From Candidatus Methylomirabilis sp. (GTDB lineage Bacteria; Methylomirabilota; Methylomirabilia; Methylomirabilales; Methylomirabilaceae), in contig JBGQJI010000059.1 of NCBI GenBank assembly GCA_041498975.1, positions 1 through 13,894 on the forward strand: a stretch of 13,894 nucleotides of DNA. Reading direction: 5' to 3'. The notes beneath the pieces are model-generated. The model ran no database searches and was not told the DNA's origin. It was given only the letters and a program-made list of their open reading frames with translations. This document shows, in pieces, positions 2,800 to 13,894 of the stretch. The translations under genes were made by a program, and so were the position numbers. Positions within the stretch are counted from its first letter, which is position 1; every line of letters starts with the position of its first letter.

Positions 2800-3125
2800 T
2801 CAGCTAACAAATGATTTTTTTCTCAAGCCCAAAAAAGGCTTGACAGTTGATGTAAGGTAAGCTAAAAGAGACTCCTCTCTGGAGGTCAAAGCCTGCAAAT
2901 GCTTATGGGACGCGGTTTTCCACAGCACCACCACTTCTCGATGATGTCCATAATCGGCAGCGAACGCGGTCGGACTGAGACTGGGCGAGGGTCTCAGCCT
3001 TATCCACACCTGTGGATAACTCTGTGGATAATACAAATCACATCTGGCGAGGGTTTTTCAAGGATCGTGCTAAGCTTCTACTGCAAATTCAATAGGTTGG
3101 ATGAGGAGTCCCCCTGTGGATAACA
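2800..3125. other. DnaA-box cluster: probable oriC and/or dnaA autoregulatory region
   Basis: Five matches to TTWTNCACA: TTTTCCACA 2916-2924, TTATCCACA 3000-3008, and TGTGGATAA at 3011-3019, 3023-3031 and 3115-3123. AT-rich tract at about 2797-2870. IHF-like ATTCAATAGGTTG at 3087-3099 (1 mismatch to WATCAANNNNTTR). Flanking genes point away from this site. Confidence 0.8.
2840..2868 (+). promoter_or_regulatory. Candidate dnaA promoter
   Basis: TTGACA 2840-2845, 17-bp spacer, TAAAAG 2863-2868 (imperfect -10), with A/T tracts upstream. Confidence 0.4.
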
Positions 3126-3142
3126 GTGGTGGAGGTGCGAGT

Positions 3143-4501
3143 ATGAGCGGTGTTCAGTCTATCTCCAAGGCACACGAGATCTGGCAGGAGGCTCTCTCGG
3201 CCATCCAGAGCAGGGTTGCGCGCCAGAGCTTCGACAACTGGTTCCGTCCCCTGGCCCTCGAGTCGATTGAAGAGTCGCGAGTCAGCGTGCGGCTCCCGAA
3301 TCGGTTCTTCAAGGAGTGGTTCGAGGACCATTATCTCGGTCTCCTCAAATCGGTGCTCGAGGACCTGATGTTCACCAAGGCGGACGTGATCCTCAGCGTT
3401 CAAGAACAAGAGAGTCAGGTGGAGCCCGACCCGAAACTTGAGGCCGCTACGAGGCGCCCGATCCGCCGACATCGGAACGAAACACCCTTCCTGAACCCGA
3501 AGTATACATTCGAGACCTTCGTCGTTGGCAGCTCGAACCAGTTCGCCCATGCCGGATGTCTGGCCGTGGGGGAGCAGCTCTCTAAGGCGTACAACCCGCT
3601 CTTCATCTACGGCGGCGTGGGGTTGGGGAAAACCCATCTGCTCCACGCGATCGGCCATCTGGTTTTGAGGCGGAACGGTAGGCTCCGGCTCTCCTACGTC
3701 TCTTCCGAAAAGTTCACGAACGACTTGATCAACGCGATCCGATTCGACTCCACCGTAGAGTTCCGCAACCGCTACCGGAGCCTCGACCTCCTCATGATCG
3801 ACGACATTCAGTTCATCGCCGGCAAAGAGCGAACCCAGGAAGAGTTCTTTCACACCTTCAATGACCTGTACGACTCCGCCAAGCAGATCGTGATCTCTTC
3901 CGATAGCCTCCCCCGTGAGATCCCGACGCTTGAGGAGCGGCTCCGCTCCCGGTTCGAGTGGGGTCTGATCGCCGACATCCAGCCGCCCGACCTCGAGACC
4001 AAGGCGGCCATCCTTCGGAAGAAGGCGCAGGCTGAGGCCGTTCGGCTTCCCGATGAAGTCTCGCTCTTCATCGCGAAGAACGTCCAGTCAAATATCAGAG
4101 AGCTGGAAGGCTCGTTGGTTCGCCTCATCGCGTACGCCTCGTTGACGGGCCGGGAAATCACTCTGGAGCTGGCCCAGGAAACTCTGAAAGACCTCAATGC
4201 CGAGCGCGCGAAGGTGATCACCCTTGCGGCTATCCAGCGGGTGGTGGCTGACTTCTTCCGGCTCAAGGTCGAAGACCTGAAGTCCAAAGAGCGGAACCAG
4301 GGAGTCGTGCTGCCGAGACAGGTGGCGATGTACCTGAGCCGCACCATGACCGTCTCATCATTGCCGGCCATCGGCGAGGCCTTTGGAGGAAAAGATCATA
4401 CGACTGTGATCCACGCCTGCGAGAAGATCAAGCGGCGACTTGTGGCCGATGAAGGATTCCGGCGACAGATCGAATCTCTCTCCCAAACGATTGCTTCCTA
4501 A
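3143..4501 (+). CDS. dnaA: Chromosomal replication initiator protein DnaA
   Basis: 452 aa from ATG 3143 with SD GGAGGT at 3131-3136. Contains LNPKYTFETFVVGSSN, YNPLFIYGGVGLGKTHL (Walker A), LLMIDDIQF (Walker B), TQEEFFHTFN, RLRSRFEWGL and domain IV FGGKDHTTVIHA. Confidence 0.99.
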   Translation: MSGVQSISKAHEIWQEALSAIQSRVARQSFDNWFRPLALESIEESRVSVRLPNRFFKEWFEDHYLGLLKSVLEDLMFTKADVILSVQEQESQVEPDPKLEAATRRPIRRHRNETPFLNPKYTFETFVVGSSNQFAHAGCLAVGEQLSKAYNPLFIYGGVGLGKTHLLHAIGHLVLRRNGRLRLSYVSSEKFTNDLINAIRFDSTVEFRNRYRSLDLLMIDDIQFIAGKERTQEEFFHTFNDLYDSAKQIVISSDSLPREIPTLEERLRSRFEWGLIADIQPPDLETKAAILRKKAQAEAVRLPDEVSLFIAKNVQSNIRELEGSLVRLIAYASLTGREITLELAQETLKDLNAERAKVITLAAIQRVVADFFRLKVEDLKSKERNQGVVLPRQVAMYLSRTMTVSSLPAIGEAFGGKDHTTVIHACEKIKRRLVADEGFRRQIESLSQTIAS

Positions 4502-9169: not shown

Positions 9170-11080
9170 ATGAAGCGAGACTTCAATATTTCCAGCCTCA
9201 TAAGCGACATGCGCCAGCGCTTAGGGATTAGTCAGGAAAAACTGGCCGCTCAACTCCGGGTGTCACTCCCGACGATCAACCGATGGGAGAAGGGCAGGAC
9301 GAGGCCGGATGCCATGGCTTTGCATGTCATCGAGCAGTATCTCCAGCGGCTTGGCCCTCAGTATAGCGACCTGCTCCAGCGTTATTTCGGCGACGAAGTC
9401 GCCCCCCTCCCTGGAATCGACCTCCCCTCTCCTCCGCCTCGCAAGCGCCCGAAGCGCAAGAACGAGGCCAGCGAAGCAAATCTCGGCCGCCCGAGGAGCG
9501 CAGCAATGAGTCCTGGCCTCGACACGAAATCCATGGAAGGTCTTCTCTGGAAGGCGGCCTGTTCCATCCGTGGTGAGAAGGATGCGCCGAAATTCAAAGA
9601 CTACATCCTGCCGCTGGTATTTATCAAGCGACTCTCTGATGTTTTCGAGGACGAAGTGATCCGACTGACCGAAACCTACGGGGACCAGGAGACAGCCCGC
9701 ACGGTGCTGGACGCGGACCCCAGCCTGGTTCGCTTTTACATCCCACCGGAGGCCACGTGGCCTGTGGTCAGTGGCCGGCAGAAGTTCGATTGGCCCGAAG
9801 GCAAGAGACCCAAGACCCTGGGTGAGCAGCTCACGATGACCGTCCGCGCGATCACCCGCGCGAACCCCTCCCTCCAGGGCGTCATCGACATCGTAGACTA
9901 TAACGAGACCCGCAACGGCGAGCGAGAGATCAGCGAGGAAGCGCTGTCCCGCCTCATCGAGCTTCTGAGTGACCAGCGCTATCGCATGGGGCTTCACGAT
10001 GTCGAACCCGACTTCCTCGGGCGCGCGTACGAGTACCTGTTGCGCAAGTTCGCCGAGGGCCAGGGGCAGAGTGCGGGTGAGTTCTTCACTCCGAAAGAGG
10101 TTGGGTGGCTCATGGCCTATCTCATGAGGCCGAAACAAGGGGAAGAGGTGTACGACCCGTGCTGCGGGTCCGGCGGACTCCTGATCAAATGCCAGCTCGC
10201 GCTCAAGGCGCAAGAGGAAGAGATCGCCAGGCCCCTCAGACTGTACGGCCAGGAATTGACCGGGTCGTCCTTCGCCATCGCCCGGATGAACACGGTTCTC
10301 CACGACATGGAAGGAGAGATCGTTCGTGGCAACTCGATGACCAACCCGAAGTTTCTTGATGGATCGAACCTCAGGCGCTTCGACATCGTGGTCACGAACC
10401 CGATGTGGAACCAGGACAATTTCGATCCAACCTCGTATGAAAACGATCCCTTCGAGCGTTTCGTGGAGCGCGGCGGGTTCGCCCCGGCCTCGAGCGCCGA
10501 CTGGGGGTGGCTTCAGCATGTCCATGCCTCCCTCAATGACTCTGGCCGTGCGGCGGTGGTCATTGACACCGGGGCCGCGAGCCGGGGCAGCGGAAGTCAA
10601 AGCGAGAATAGAGAAAAAACCATCCGCCGCTGGTTTGTGGACCGCGACGTGATCGAGGGCGTCATCCTCCTCCCGGAAAATCTCTTCTACAACACCACAG
10701 CGGCCGGCATCATCATCCTTCTCAACCGCTGCAAATCCAAAGACCGGCAGGGCCGCATGGTTCTGATCAACGCCAGTGGCGAATTCGAGAAAGGCCGCCC
10801 GAAAAACTTCATTCCCGATGCGTCCATCAAGAAGATCGCCGAAGGGTTCCACGCGGGCAAGGACGTGGAACGCTTCGTCGAGGTCGCCAGCATCGAAGAG
10901 ATCGCGCAGAACGACTACAACCTTTCGCCCTCGCGGTACATCGAAACAGCCGCGGCGGCGCAGCACCGCGACGTTCAGACTATCCTGGATGATCTGTCGA
11001 AGCTGGAGGCGGAATCGAAACAATTGGATGGTGACCTGAAGGAGATCTTTACCGGACTTGGCTATCAGTGGCGCAGCTAG
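9170..11080 (+). CDS. hsdM: Type I R-M methyltransferase subunit with an N-terminal XRE/Cro HTH domain
   Basis: 636 aa. About residues 10-60 form an HTH (MRQRLGISQEKLAAQLRVSLPTINRWEKG), then a Pro/basic linker, HsdM_N (LLWKAACSIRG..KDYILPLVFIKRLSD), DFLGRAYEYLLRKFA, GEFFTPKEV, motif I YDPCCGSGG, YGQE, motif IV NPMW, LPENLFYNT and NDYNLSPSRYI. Confidence 0.95.
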   Translation: MKRDFNISSLISDMRQRLGISQEKLAAQLRVSLPTINRWEKGRTRPDAMALHVIEQYLQRLGPQYSDLLQRYFGDEVAPLPGIDLPSPPPRKRPKRKNEASEANLGRPRSAAMSPGLDTKSMEGLLWKAACSIRGEKDAPKFKDYILPLVFIKRLSDVFEDEVIRLTETYGDQETARTVLDADPSLVRFYIPPEATWPVVSGRQKFDWPEGKRPKTLGEQLTMTVRAITRANPSLQGVIDIVDYNETRNGEREISEEALSRLIELLSDQRYRMGLHDVEPDFLGRAYEYLLRKFAEGQGQSAGEFFTPKEVGWLMAYLMRPKQGEEVYDPCCGSGGLLIKCQLALKAQEEEIARPLRLYGQELTGSSFAIARMNTVLHDMEGEIVRGNSMTNPKFLDGSNLRRFDIVVTNPMWNQDNFDPTSYENDPFERFVERGGFAPASSADWGWLQHVHASLNDSGRAAVVIDTGAASRGSGSQSENREKTIRRWFVDRDVIEGVILLPENLFYNTTAAGIIILLNRCKSKDRQGRMVLINASGEFEKGRPKNFIPDASIKKIAEGFHAGKDVERFVEVASIEEIAQNDYNLSPSRYIETAAAAQHRDVQTILDDLSKLEAESKQLDGDLKEIFTGLGYQWRS

Positions 11081-11094
11081 AAAGCCCGCGGAGT

Positions 11095-11146
11095 GGTGGT
11101 CACGGTCTGTGACCACCTTTAAGGTCACAATTTGCGACCTTAAAGG
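11095..11146. promoter_or_regulatory. Two tandem palindromes with core GGTCRC-N5-GYGACC upstream of the ORF6N gene
   Basis: A: GGTGGTCAC-ggtct-GTGACCACC (11095-11117). B: CCTTTAAGGTCACAA-t-TTGCGACCTTAAAGG (11116-11146, one mismatch). Centres are 25 bp apart. A regulatory role is inferred. Confidence 0.65.
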
Positions 11147-11160
11147 GAAGGGGTAGTAGC

Positions 11161-11679
11161 ATGGAGAGCCTAGTTCCATTAGAGCGCATCGAGACGAGAA
11201 TCATCGTGTTCCGTGGCCACAAAGTCATGCTCGACAGCGATCTGGCTGATCTTTATGGTGTTTCTACCAAACGACTAAACGAGCAGGTTCGGAGAAATAT
11301 CAAGCGATTTCCAGCCGATTTCATGATCCAGTTAACGGATGAGGAGGCCAATGCTTTAAGGTCGCAAATTGCGACCTTAAAGCCGGGTCGCGGCAAGCAC
11401 CGTAAGTATTTGCCGTATGCGTTTACCGAGCAGGGTGTGGCCATGCTCTCGAGTGTCCTAAACAGTGAACGGGCCATTCAGGTCAACATCGAGATCATGC
11501 GGGCGTTTGTCCGGCTTCGAGCAATGGCACTCTCTTACAAGGAGCTTGCCCGAAAGGTGGACGCGATGGAAAAGAAGTATGACTCACGGTTCAAAGTGGT
11601 CTTCGACGCCATCCGCAAGCTCATGGAGCCGGTTGAGCGACCGAGAGCGCGGGTTGGGTTCCGGGCCGAGAGAGCGTGA
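11161..11679 (+). CDS. ORF6N-domain (KilA-N-related) DNA-binding protein
   Basis: 172 aa with IIVFRGHKVMLDSDLADLYGVSTKRLNEQVRRNIKRFPADFMIQLT, LPYAFTEQGVAMLSSVLNSERAIQVNIEIMRAFV and C-terminal VGF. Its stop overlaps the hsdS GTG (GTGA). Confidence 0.92.
   Translation: MESLVPLERIETRIIVFRGHKVMLDSDLADLYGVSTKRLNEQVRRNIKRFPADFMIQLTDEEANALRSQIATLKPGRGKHRKYLPYAFTEQGVAMLSSVLNSERAIQVNIEIMRAFVRLRAMALSYKELARKVDAMEKKYDSRFKVVFDAIRKLMEPVERPRARVGFRAERA
11353..11383. repeat. Perfect 31-bp palindrome inside the ORF6N coding sequence
   Basis: GCTTTAAGGTCGCAA-a-TTGCGACCTTAAAGC, encoding A65-L-R-S-Q-I-A-T-L-K74. 27/29 identical to 11117-11145. Confidence 0.95.
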
Positions 11680-12956
11680 ACATGGCTGGGCTCATCGAAA
11701 CAAGAATTGGGCCGTTACCCAAAGAATGGGAACTTGTCCAACTCCGCGACACCTGTCTGGATTTCTTCGGCGGAGGCACACCATCAACTAAGACCCCCGA
11801 GTTTTGGGACGGCAATGTAGCTTGGACAACCAGCGCCCATTTGGATGGGCTCTATCTAACAACCGGGCAGCGACGCATAACCGAGGTTGGGCTTGAACAT
11901 AGCGCATGCCGCGTGGTCCCTGCCGGAAACCTTTTGATCGGCACTCGCGTCGGGGTTGGGAAGACCTCCGTCAATCTTATTGATATTGCGATAAGCCAAG
12001 ATCTCACCGGGGCGATCATAGATAAGGAACGTTTTCTTCCGGAGTATCTGGCCCTCTATCTCCAGACAGCTTGCTGTCAATCAGTCTTCGCTCTCCAGAA
12101 ACGTGGAGCTACGATCAAAGGCATTCCTCGGGAGGACCTCCATCGTATCGAAATCGCCGCCCCCCCTCTGCCTGAACAACGCGCCATAGCCGGGATCCTA
12201 TCAAAGTTCCTCGCGGCAGTAGAGCTGCAGCACAGGATCGTGGCCACGCTGAAGGAACTGAAGGCCGCGACGATGGCCAAGCTCTTCCGCGAGGGTCTCC
12301 GCGGTGAACCCCTCAAACAAACCGAAATCGGCGAGATCCCCAAGGGCTGGGCGATCCTGCGACTTGACCAAGTCGCTACTATCGAGCGCGGCAAGTTTAC
12401 ACACCGCCCTCGGAATGACCCCCGATTCTATGGAGGCACAATCCCGTTCATTCAAACCGGTGACGTCGCGAAATGCAATGGACGAATTCGCACTTACACT
12501 CAAACGCTCAACGACGACGGCCTGGCGATCAGTCGGCTGTTCCCCAGGGGAACTATTGTCCTCACGATCGCGGCAAATATTGCTGACACCGGGATCTTGG
12601 AGTTCGATAGTGCCTTTCCCGACAGCCTCGTTGGAATCACCCCCGACGACACCATGGACACGGTTTTCTTGCAATACTACTTGCGAACTCAAAAGACAGA
12701 AATGGACCGGTTGGCACCAAAAGGTACTCAGAAAAATATCAACATCCAGTTTTTGAAACCGTGGCCGACTCCACGCCCCAGGATCGATGAACAGAGAGAG
12801 ATCGCGCAGAGCCTGCGCTCCTTTGATGACCGTCTGGAAGTCGCATCAGCAAAGCACCACACCTTCAAGTCTCTCTTCTCCTCGATGCTCCATCTGCTCA
12901 TGACCGGCCAGGTTCGAATCAATCGTGTGAAACCTGGAGAGGAAAGACATGGCTAG
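11676..12956 (+). CDS. hsdS: Type I R-M specificity subunit (two TRDs)
   Basis: 426 aa with two repeated halves: IGPLPKEW..GGGTPS...PPLPEQRAIAGIL and TEIGEIPKGW...PRIDEQREIAQSL, ending SMLHLLMTGQVRI. Start is GTG 11676 or ATG 11682. Confidence 0.95.
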   Translation: MNMAGLIETRIGPLPKEWELVQLRDTCLDFFGGGTPSTKTPEFWDGNVAWTTSAHLDGLYLTTGQRRITEVGLEHSACRVVPAGNLLIGTRVGVGKTSVNLIDIAISQDLTGAIIDKERFLPEYLALYLQTACCQSVFALQKRGATIKGIPREDLHRIEIAAPPLPEQRAIAGILSKFLAAVELQHRIVATLKELKAATMAKLFREGLRGEPLKQTEIGEIPKGWAILRLDQVATIERGKFTHRPRNDPRFYGGTIPFIQTGDVAKCNGRIRTYTQTLNDDGLAISRLFPRGTIVLTIAANIADTGILEFDSAFPDSLVGITPDDTMDTVFLQYYLRTQKTEMDRLAPKGTQKNINIQFLKPWPTPRPRIDEQREIAQSLRSFDDRLEVASAKHHTFKSLFSSMLHLLMTGQVRINRVKPGEERHG

Positions 12957-13113: not shown

Positions 13114-13342
13114 CACCCCGGGTAGGCTGCCGGCTGATATCAGGATAGGCTGCGAAGCATGCAGTGTTTGACGGAGTGATGGGTTTGGCAAAGTCTCGCC
13201 ATGTGATTGATATTGTGGTTGACCATGCTCACTGTGGATTAACCGGCTTGACGAGATATGCTGCTTTGCGTTGTTGCAATAGATCTAAATGGGCCGCTCT
13301 CTAAATGCCGCCGTTTCAGTAGGGGCGATTGGAGGTGAAGCA

Positions 13343-13894
13343 ATGAAGTTAAAGGAAGTGCAGGTTCGGAATTTTCGAAACATCCTCGATTCAACTCCGG
13401 TTCACATTCAGCCGGATGTAACCTGCCTGGTTGGGAAAAACGAAGCTGGAAAGACGGCGTTACTTCACGCCTTATATCGGCTCCATCCCGCACGAGCTAA
13501 CGTCAAATTTTCTGTTCCCGATCATTATCCGGCCTGGCTGGAAAAGAGGGATCGGCTGGAAGGCAAAGACCTCGAAAAGTTTGTCCCGACACGGGCTATC
13601 TTTGAGCTAGAACCTACCGATGTCGCGCCCTTCGAAGCCAAGTTCGGACCAAATGTATTAAAGGGCACCACGCTTTCCCTTGAGCGCAACTACGAAGGCA
13701 CGCTTTCCTGCGACCTCAATGCGGACGAACAAACTGCGGTTCGGAACTGCGTGTCGGGTCTAAAGCTCCTTAAAAAGTTCTCAGACCAAGCGAAGGGTCT
13801 AAAAACGTTCCAAGATCTCAAAGCGTATGCCCAAGAGCTAGCCACAAGAAAGGCCGAGGACGAAGAGAGCGGGAAGGTATCGGAAGGTATTTCC
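13343..13894 (+). CDS. ABC/SMC-like ATPase (AAA_15 / OLD-family ATP-dependent nuclease N-terminus), runs off the window
   Basis: Not in the ORF track because it has no stop. SD GGAGGT at 13331-13336. MKLKEVQVRNFRNILDSTPVHIQPDVTCLVGKNEAGKTALLHALYRL... with Walker A GKNEAGKT; open for 184 codons to the window end. Confidence 0.9.
   Translation, partial: MKLKEVQVRNFRNILDSTPVHIQPDVTCLVGKNEAGKTALLHALYRLHPARANVKFSVPDHYPAWLEKRDRLEGKDLEKFVPTRAIFELEPTDVAPFEAKFGPNVLKGTTLSLERNYEGTLSCDLNADEQTAVRNCVSGLKLLKKFSDQAKGLKTFQDLKAYAQELATRKAEDEESGKVSEGIS

Follow-up and report, generated by a model that had tools for sequence, protein, structure and literature searches.

A palindrome within ORF6N genes as the probable binding site of the encoded protein, with two related palindromes upstream in a Candidatus Methylomirabilis type I restriction operon

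The window analysed here, a stretch of 13,894 nucleotides from Candidatus Methylomirabilis sp. (assembly GCA_041498975.1, contig JBGQJI010000059.1), includes a gene of the ORF6N family which lies between the methyltransferase and specificity genes of a type I restriction system, carries a long palindrome inside its coding sequence (site C) and is preceded by two further palindromes (sites A and B). The intragenic palindrome is a feature of almost the whole ORF6N gene family; its symmetry is kept by compensatory changes, and its bases are associated with residues of a helix encoded elsewhere in the gene. Comparison of the sequences indicates that it is most likely the ORF6N protein's own binding site. 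The best overall explanation, to which we give a probability of roughly 0.65, is that the palindromes are duplex DNA binding sites for dimers of ORF6N-type proteins, including a self-directed role; binding, dimerisation and any consequences for regulation or immunity are what we infer from these observations.

Conservation of the intragenic palindrome

The two arms of site C (11353-11367 and 11369-11383) are 15 nucleotides long and 100% complementary, both by repeat search and by direct reading, and the palindrome encodes ALRSQIATLK, residues 65-74, just as an earlier note made from the sequence alone had described. The homologous spot was compared in a sample of 269 loci (relatives of the source genome, genome contigs, metagenome contigs and viral contigs), in which 280 gene hits spanning the region gave 247 distinct 121-nucleotide contexts; the ORF6N/PDC-S05-type proteins are spread over many bacterial phyla and viral contigs. 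The best 15-arm palindrome score at this spot was 15 in 28 genes, 14 in 48, 13 in 79, 12 in 49, 11 in 23 and 10 or less in 20. As a control, each gene was recoded synonymously 200 times with the codon usage of the family, searching the same 31 centres. The mean best score was 12.8 in the genes and 8.0 in the recodings; the observed score was reached by none of the recodings in 173 of the 247 genes, by 1% or less of them in 216, and by more than 5% in 11. The earlier note had held that protein constraint fails to explain the palindrome, and had named a lack of palindromy beyond codon-shuffled controls in homologues among the grounds that would refute its proposed module; the palindromy found lies far beyond the recodings, and the argument on protein constraint stands.

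The main register comprises 209 of the 247 genes, including that of the window, whose site has the features of the class (a palindrome of about 27 bp with a CAA-W-TTG centre, in the codons between F.LT..E and PYAFTE) with 15 of 15 pairs. Over arm positions 2-13 of this register 2350 of the 2508 cells are Watson-Crick pairs, and several pair types occur at positions 4, 5, 7, 8, 10 and 13: A-T in 99 genes, C-G in 51 and G-C in 48 at position 4; G-C in 132 and A-T in 48 at position 7; T-A in 117 and C-G in 70 at position 13. Positions 14 and 15 are paired in only about half of the genes, indicating that the effective element is about 27 bp long. The protein changes along with the paired bases, residues 68 and 71 forming Ser-Ala, Ser-Val, Tyr-Gly, Phe-Gly and Cys-Gly combinations, which indicates that the DNA symmetry drives the peptide and not the reverse. 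The core TCACAA-W-TTGTGA is also present in a different reading frame, 2 nucleotides away, in 17 genes (peptide E-V-I-T-N-C-D-H-L), and 12 nucleotides downstream in 16 genes, giving three registers/frames in all.

Complementarity maintained by compensatory changes at all 13 arm positions would also fit RNA stem-loops, or DNA hairpins or cruciforms, affecting translation, RNA stability or replication without any base reading by the ORF6N protein; in the window, an RNA stem is predicted at 11340-11396 (-29.5 kcal/mol, z -5.0), together with two adjacent spacer stems (z -3.1 on the plus strand and -5.8 on the minus strand). However, the 158 cells of positions 2-13 that are not Watson-Crick pairs comprise 23 sense-strand G-T, 65 A-C and 70 others, without wobble enrichment (G-T accounts for 0.9% of all 2508 cells). 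A hairpin also leaves unexplained the residue-to-base code described below, including its presence in another reading frame, and the non-coding copies of the palindrome favour the promoter side of the gene. We consider a hairpin function unlikely and prefer recognition of the palindrome as duplex DNA.

Helix residues and palindrome bases

The association between protein and site was analysed in a query-anchored alignment of the 227 genes with a palindrome score of at least 11, as normalised mutual information between protein columns and site bases. The highest value quoted here was found between column 41 and position 4 (0.92), above that of column 71, which is encoded by the palindrome itself (0.87); column 38 reached 0.69 with position 4, and column 37 reached 0.74 with position 7. 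Residues 37, 38 and 41 lie outside the codons of the palindrome, about 80-100 nucleotides upstream of the stem bases. The variable columns 43-64, between the helix and the palindrome, did not exceed 0.19, making simple linkage within a recombining block unlikely.

The residues predict the bases of the site: at -5/-4, Q41 is accompanied by CA (TCAC) in 120 of 123 genes, E41 by CG (TCGC) in 47 of 47, K41 by TC in 14 of 14, L41 by TT in 3 of 3, and R38 by CG in 46 of 46; R41 goes with C at -4 in 38 of 39 genes; K37 goes with GG at -8/-7 in 122 of 129, and R37 with A at -7 in 52 of 57. Glutamine usually contacts A, glutamate C, and arginine or lysine G, and the pairings of the code agree with these preferences. 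In the shifted-frame class K37 occurs with GG in 7 of 7 genes, all R37 genes have A at -7, and both E41 genes have TCGC in at least one half; since other codons encode the bases in that frame, the persistence of the code argues against an intraprotein contact as its cause. The window protein carries K37, R38 and E41, and each half of site C shows GG at -8/-7 and CG at -5/-4, a fully cognate match of protein and site.

The code was followed through a tree of 191 rows, weakly supported and built without columns 34-46 and 60-84. On it, residue 41 requires at least 70 changes and the site at least 76, upper-end counts given the weak support of the tree. Independent pairs on well-supported branches all pointed in the same direction, none in the opposite one, for E41 (5 pairs), Q41 (5) and K41 (3); K37 with G at -7 gave 8 independent pairs, again in the same direction (median p 0.016); R41 gave 4 pairs, on average 3.6 of them the same way, with one opposite pair in a few of the random pairings. 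Among the 27 closest relatives of the window protein (65-72% identity), KRE, KVQ, KTR, KYR and KNK types are interleaved, and almost all of them have the matching site, the one exception being locus L042 (Q41 with TCGC).

In the AlphaFold model of the window protein (71-sequence alignment; mean predicted local distance difference test score, pLDDT, 79.4; predicted template-modelling score 0.66), helices 25-32 and 36-45 form a helix-turn-helix arrangement, and K37, R38 and E41 are in the second of them. The codons of the palindrome fall at the end of helix 60-66 and the beginning of a low-confidence, unstructured loop, 67-85 (mean pLDDT 57 over residues 71-80). The long C-terminal helices 103-139 and 142-155 of the model could mediate dimerisation. 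No match was found with Foldseek against the PDB at E 0.001, nor anything relevant in a sequence search of solved structures (best SSE1, E about 0.04); a wide VIA-align search matched baculovirus Orf22-N (Z 6.2), Dachshund (5.9), Mbp1 (4.4) and the DNA-binding domain of pSK1 Par on centromere DNA (Z 5.0). The earlier note had proposed that the ORF6N protein binds the palindrome; the family-wide occurrence of the element and the helix residues that predict its bases support this indirectly but strongly.

The upstream palindromes and other non-coding copies

The earlier note had described the two upstream palindromes of the window as a near-identical copy of site C and a second palindrome with the same core, which proved correct (Table 1). 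Site B, read as the copy at 11117-11145, matches site C in 27 of 29 positions (93%) as a direct repeat and in 28 of 29 (97%) as an inverted repeat; over positions 2-13 of both arms the two sites are identical in 23 of 24, placing them among the closest upstream/intragenic pairs of the family sample. It stands 30 nucleotides ahead of the ATG and ends just before the ribosome-binding stretch GGGAAGGGG. Between TTTAAGG outer arms it combines a GGTCAC half of Q type on the left with a cognate GGTCGC half of E type on the right, and is thereby an exact hybrid of the E-type and Q-type sites that have these arms in the nearest KRE and KVQ relatives. Both half-sites of site A are GGTCAC (K37/Q41 type) and keep the family register (GGTCAC, 5 nucleotides, GTGACC) with a spacer that differs from the usual AAWTT.

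Table 1 Positions of the palindromes and genes discussed, in the coordinates of the window.
Feature	Position	Strand	Description and basis
Intragenic site (site C)	11353..11383		Perfect 31-bp palindrome, centre 11368, both halves GGTCGC
Site B	11116..11146		31-bp palindrome, 14/15 pairs, centre 11131
Site A	11095..11117		Palindrome GGTGGTCAC-GGTCT-GTGACCACC, centre 11106
Second helix of the predicted helix-turn-helix	11266..11295	+	Codons 36-45 (TKRLNEQVRR); AlphaFold model
hsdM, type I methyltransferase	9170..11080	+	Pfam N6_Mtase E 4.9e-89, HsdM_N; PADLOC MTase_I
ORF6N gene, 172 aa	11161..11679	+	Pfam PF10543, PADLOC PDC-S05, PHROG
hsdS, type I specificity subunit	11676..12956	+	Pfam Methylase_S E 2.2e-32; PADLOC Specificity_I; sequence

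The core GGTCRC-N5-GYGACC, allowing one mismatch, occurs three times in the window, all at this locus, as the earlier note had stated; 0.23 occurrences are expected, and three were reached in 1 of 200 shuffles. The exact core occurs five times in the whole assembly (2,676,622 bases), three of them within the 290-bp stretch of the locus and the remaining two (C6:10006 and C206:498) inside long open frames. A longer 25-nucleotide pattern, with up to three mismatches, has no further copy in the genome. A dispersed genome-wide repeat, similar to repetitive extragenic palindromes (REP), is therefore ruled out, the two core matches elsewhere being at chance level. As the sites are confined to their own locus in this genome, the protein would not be a global regulator here; it would be self-directed or aimed at foreign DNA.

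Across the family, strict sites were defined by a CAA-N-TTG core with at most one mismatch and at least 10 of 12 arm pairs. Of the 359 sites obtained, 278 lie at the homologous codons, 2 at other places within ORF6N coding sequence and 79 outside ORF6N matches. At least one site was found within 200 nucleotides upstream in 43 of the 227 genes having at least 200 nucleotides of upstream sequence (39 distinct combinations), with centres 3-167 nucleotides before the estimated start, mostly 30-100. Among 175 genes with 200 nucleotides on both sides there were 39 sites upstream and 8 downstream, counting a viral lineage of about ten genes uncollapsed. Further degenerate copies are seen on visual inspection, indicating that arrays are commoner than the strict count suggests. 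When the 63 non-coding copies were compared with a coding-context profile, the match was limited to the palindrome in 52 of them (at most 15 nucleotides beyond it), and the other 11 are gene remnants. The upstream copies are real, recurrent and on the promoter side of the gene, and about half of them are of another specificity type.

A cognate non-coding site was present in 10 of the 31 genes lacking a cognate intragenic site, compared with 20 of the 215 keeping one. Compensation of a lost intragenic site by a non-coding copy was considered and rejected as anecdotal, since most of the 31 genes are borderline by the threshold and 5 come from one viral lineage. In L101 (1046) the intragenic site is lost and in L042 (1430) the site does not fit residue 41, each gene having a cognate palindrome 61-62 nucleotides upstream; these two loci hint that a nearby cognate site is what matters.

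Several arrangements of multiple palindromes were observed. Locus L123 has a downstream array of three palindromes of different types (1041, 1075 and 1105), 30-34 nucleotides apart, directly after the ORF6N stop. The loci L275 (G010:C18), L276 (G018:C45), L279 (G005:C157) and L277 (G049:C148), from relatives of the source genome, have tandem arrays of two to five ORF6N genes and fragments; the members of such arrays differ in specificity type, each carries the palindrome that matches it, and further palindromes stand alone in between. Judging from these sequences, cross-recognition between sister ORF6N proteins is plausible. The source assembly contains a second ORF6N trace, L004 (G000:C208, 1-132, minus strand), at a contig end: an N-terminal pseudogene fragment with two in-frame TGA codons and the helix residues R37, E38 and Q41, unlike the type of the window gene. 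Searches of that assembly (85% complete) found no intact K/Q-type ORF6N partner.

The palindromes might have no function at all: a chance near-palindrome in the conserved peptide LRSQIATS could have been perfected by quasipalindrome template-switch repair, template switching being a mutational route that perfects imperfect palindromes, and the upstream copies could be local duplications or leftovers of decayed genes. The tandem arrays with their many fragments are consistent with this, as are the 11 non-coding copies that extend into gene-like flanks; in the window, the similarity extends beyond the palindrome by 14 nucleotides on one side, and the upstream copy shares the reading frame of the ORF6N gene. 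On the other hand, neither the code of residues 37, 38 and 41 nor the occurrence of the same core in three registers would be explained, nor would the large majority of non-coding palindromes that are bare and their upstream bias. Moreover, the pairing in site B continues for one pair after its identity with the intragenic copy has ended (C...G versus G...C), indicating that it keeps its own symmetry. A functionless origin is decidedly unlikely.

The earlier note had offered, as its other option, recombination or hairpin sites that move or diversify the gene. Sites B and C repeat each other in direct as well as inverted orientation, and could serve for inverting, deleting or exchanging the 237-bp segment between them, or for shuffling ORF6N gene halves; the arrays of whole and partial genes in relatives, with fragment borders near residues 77-86, are consistent with such exchanges, and one contig (depth 2.7) joins 11146 to 11353. 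The shorter side of this joint, 26 letters, is under the 30 used as a guide to reliability. The main DNA contigs of two sediment metagenome runs are collinear with the window. Three other low-depth joints were found in one run, the shorter side of all four being at most 31 letters, and they may derive from other ORF6N genes in the community. Only 1 of 81 gene pairs at least 90% identical in one half is 65% identical or less in the other, and no recombinase family was found among the seven longer open frames scanned, a scan not aimed at recombinases and leaving the rest of the window outside. Serine invertases make a 2-bp staggered cut, to which the odd centre of the palindrome, a single nucleotide, is ill-suited. 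Rearrangement through the palindromes is thus very improbable: mosaic genes are almost absent and the read data hold no well-supported rearrangement.

The two runs contain near-identical strains with G>A at 11093, C>A at 11195 and, where sites A and B meet, one additional C after 11115 that lengthens their spacing by 1 nucleotide. Short-read contigs of one run break within the intragenic palindrome, one ending at 11382 and another beginning at 11354; perfect 31-bp palindromes seem to break such assemblies, and this may account for fragmentation of ORF6N genes in metagenome bins.

Under the preferred explanation, dimers of ORF6N-type proteins would occupy the three palindromes as double-stranded DNA, each monomer reading one 13-bp half-site through the second helix of the helix-turn-helix: residue 41, helped by residue 38, would read -5/-4, and residue 37 would read -8/-7. 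The intragenic site, with its GGTCGC halves, would be the cognate and family-defining site of the K37 R38 E41 protein, written into a tolerant protein loop, making gene and site inseparable. Sites A and B would be accessory sites before the ribosome-binding site, either weaker operators left from a switch from Q to E or sites for a K/Q-type sister protein. Since the genome holds no other clear site, the purpose is likely to be self-directed.

Several observations weigh against this explanation. In the window, three of the four upstream half-sites are of Q type while the protein is of E type. The co-variation of upstream and intragenic copies expected by the earlier note is weak across the family: it appears in whole-site similarity (17.0 of 24 to the gene's own intragenic site versus 16.0 to those of other loci, permutation p 0.004) and not in the specificity bases, where 29 of 68 upstream half-sites fit the adjacent residue 41 compared with 22.7 ± 4.7 expected (p 0.11), indicating a lack of cognate fit in many upstream copies. 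Co-variation between residues 41 and 71 within the protein itself is conceivable. There are only 3-8 trusted independent pairs per state, and four of the five tests, having at most 5 pairs, cannot reach p 0.05. All the fold matches to DNA-binding domains are under the caution level of Z 8, the best being 6.2. The symmetry covers 13 bp per half-site, more than a single helix-turn-helix would lead one to expect, and would fit a hairpin as well. Finally, a simple scan of 11081-11160 found no terminator-like or promoter-like site, a result of little weight, as the promoter type of the organism may differ.

The restriction locus and related systems

The ORF6N gene follows hsdM in the same orientation, with a gap of 80 bp, and its stop (11677-11679) overlaps the GTG of hsdS at 11676; with the alternative in-frame ATG at 11682, the hsdS start directly abuts that stop. 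The protein belongs to PF10543 (121.7 bits compared with a cut-off of 27.8, E 1.6e-35; residues 13-99 aligned to positions 2-86 of the 86 of the model), Pfam giving only ORF6N plus a sub-threshold Phage_pRha match, and to PDC-S05 by PADLOC (PDLC04856, E 1e-57; PDLC04869, E 5e-56; PDLC04849, E 1.3e-41); in PHROG it matches 'anti-repressor' families (E 4.8e-31). Any transcript from hsdM must cross sites A, B and C to reach hsdS, and it is reasonable to suppose that bound protein would exert feedback on ORF6N and hsdS, perhaps by the looping or roadblock proposed in the earlier note. A contig from an RNA library (10967-11230) crosses the hsdM-ORF6N junction; as carry-over of DNA is possible, it gives only a weak hint of such a transcript, and a lack of RNA coverage elsewhere in the stretch carries no meaning.

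HsdM has an additional N-terminal HTH_3 domain (residues 13-59, Pfam E 3.4e-11). This domain is of Xre type and encoded at about 9206-9346, the N6_Mtase domain not beginning before residue 280, so that HsdM is a methyltransferase with a DNA-binding or controller-like domain built in. Controller proteins of restriction systems bind palindromic boxes, and the upstream palindromes could be operators of the HTH_3 domain, acting as a controller, and not of the ORF6N protein. The same palindromes, however, precede ORF6N genes at the many other loci counted above, while HsdM or HsdS is detectable beside just 5 of 223 other loci (1.5-kb flanks, with the window proteins as queries, an undercount, for HsdS in particular), and no copy lies elsewhere in the window by the one-mismatch core search and the relaxed genome scan, hence none upstream of hsdM. 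This assignment is extremely unlikely, and the ORF6N protein is preferred as the reader of the sites.

Other features of the window were also noted. An AAA_15 ATPase gene follows hsdS (13289-13894) and runs off the window end; in PADLOC it matches AriA best (E 1.4e-13) and, after that, many models of GajA, PtuA and Old, and with it the locus looks like a small defence island. The dnaA gene (3101-4501, Bac_DnaA E 2.6e-69) is about 4.7 kb upstream of hsdM, placing the restriction/ORF6N island near the presumed replication origin region. An antisense open frame of 638 aa (minus strand, 9263-11179), spanning hsdM and sites A and B, is probably a by-product of composition.

Among experimentally studied systems, BstA with its aba element comes closest. 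BstA is described as a prophage abortive-infection protein with a KilA-N-like domain, and aba as a 63-bp element which overlaps the bstA start, works at the level of DNA rather than of RNA or peptide, requires terminal direct CCCGCC repeats and confers cognate self-immunity, each variant having its own element (Owen et al. 2021, PMC8585504). Both cases would combine a defence-linked protein having a KilA-N-type DNA-binding domain with a short DNA element in its own gene. They differ in that the ORF6N element is a 27-31-bp palindrome in the middle of the gene (codons 65-74) with extra copies upstream, whereas aba measures 63 bp and lies at the gene start; the ORF6N element has neither a length of about 63 bp, nor an overlap with the gene start, nor terminal direct repeats. 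BstA, as described there, has about 307 aa and a second domain, compared with the 172 aa of the ORF6N protein, which at E 0.001 or better matches only PDC-S05 models in PADLOC, a library that may not include a BstA model.

PDC-S05 is itself a candidate family only, and defence by the gene of the window is putative. In a study of cold seeps, a PDC-S05 representative in E. coli B reduced plating about 1000-fold for T7 and T5 and about 10-fold for T4; this protective representative is described with a Virulence_RhuM domain and may belong to another sub-family (PMC12881386). Neither of the two sources on PDC-S05 refers to the palindrome. Like the founding examples of the family, the ORF6N protein of the window is embedded in a type I restriction operon.

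Two other kinds of system share part of the arrangement. Controller (C) proteins have an Xre-type helix-turn-helix, and their C-boxes are solely upstream of their own gene. They resemble the ORF6N protein as small DNA-binding proteins of restriction operons with palindromic sites before their own gene, a layout which suggests feedback control of the downstream restriction genes. In contrast, the ORF6N protein has an ORF6N/KilA-N-like fold without an HTH_3 match, its universal and family-defining site is inside the coding sequence, and most of the sampled homologues do not adjoin a detectable hsdM or hsdS. Sites within the gene of their own binding protein are also known from parS in parB/spo0J and from the lambda origin iterons in gene O, and the ORF6N palindrome, with its putative binder, is similarly embedded; those are partition and replication systems, whereas no partner ATPase or origin function is evident at the ORF6N locus. 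We know of no description, for parS or the lambda iterons, of a family-wide residue-to-base code with frequent specificity switches. By analogy, the ORF6N palindrome may be grouped with cis sites located in the gene of the protein that binds them, its cognate specificity recalling that of BstA and aba. No published description of a family-wide ORF6N palindrome was found in the literature searched, nor, among the papers listed there, any follow-up of how aba works, subscription journals and supplements being outside that scope.

The sites could serve for autoregulation, as a roadblock on the hsdM-ORF6N-hsdS transcript, or as an aba-like mark by which a defence protein would know its own DNA. 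The last of these can be extended, as a tentative suggestion drawn from the BstA analogy, to a self-identity tag: ORF6N/PDC-S05 proteins would be defence effectors acting on incoming DNA, and the embedded site would switch them off or divert them on their own replicon; the switches at residue 41 would reflect an arms race, and non-cognate upstream sites, such as the Q-type half-sites of this locus, would be borrowed passwords shielding the locus or its carrier from sister variants.

If the proposed reading is true, a widespread family of small DNA-binding proteins, at least some of which have a link to phage defence, writes its recognition site into its own coding sequence and keeps it matched through many specificity switches. 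The family would provide a natural, readable amino-acid-to-base recognition code for the ORF6N/KilA-N fold, as well as a clear case of a DNA element constraining protein evolution, the encoded residues co-varying solely because the DNA must stay symmetrical. It would also give a testable model for self/non-self marking in single-gene defence beyond BstA-aba. To this the window adds an arrangement of three sites within a type I restriction operon, one of them a half-switched hybrid, and it is thereby well suited to tests of specificity switching and of the control of hsdS.

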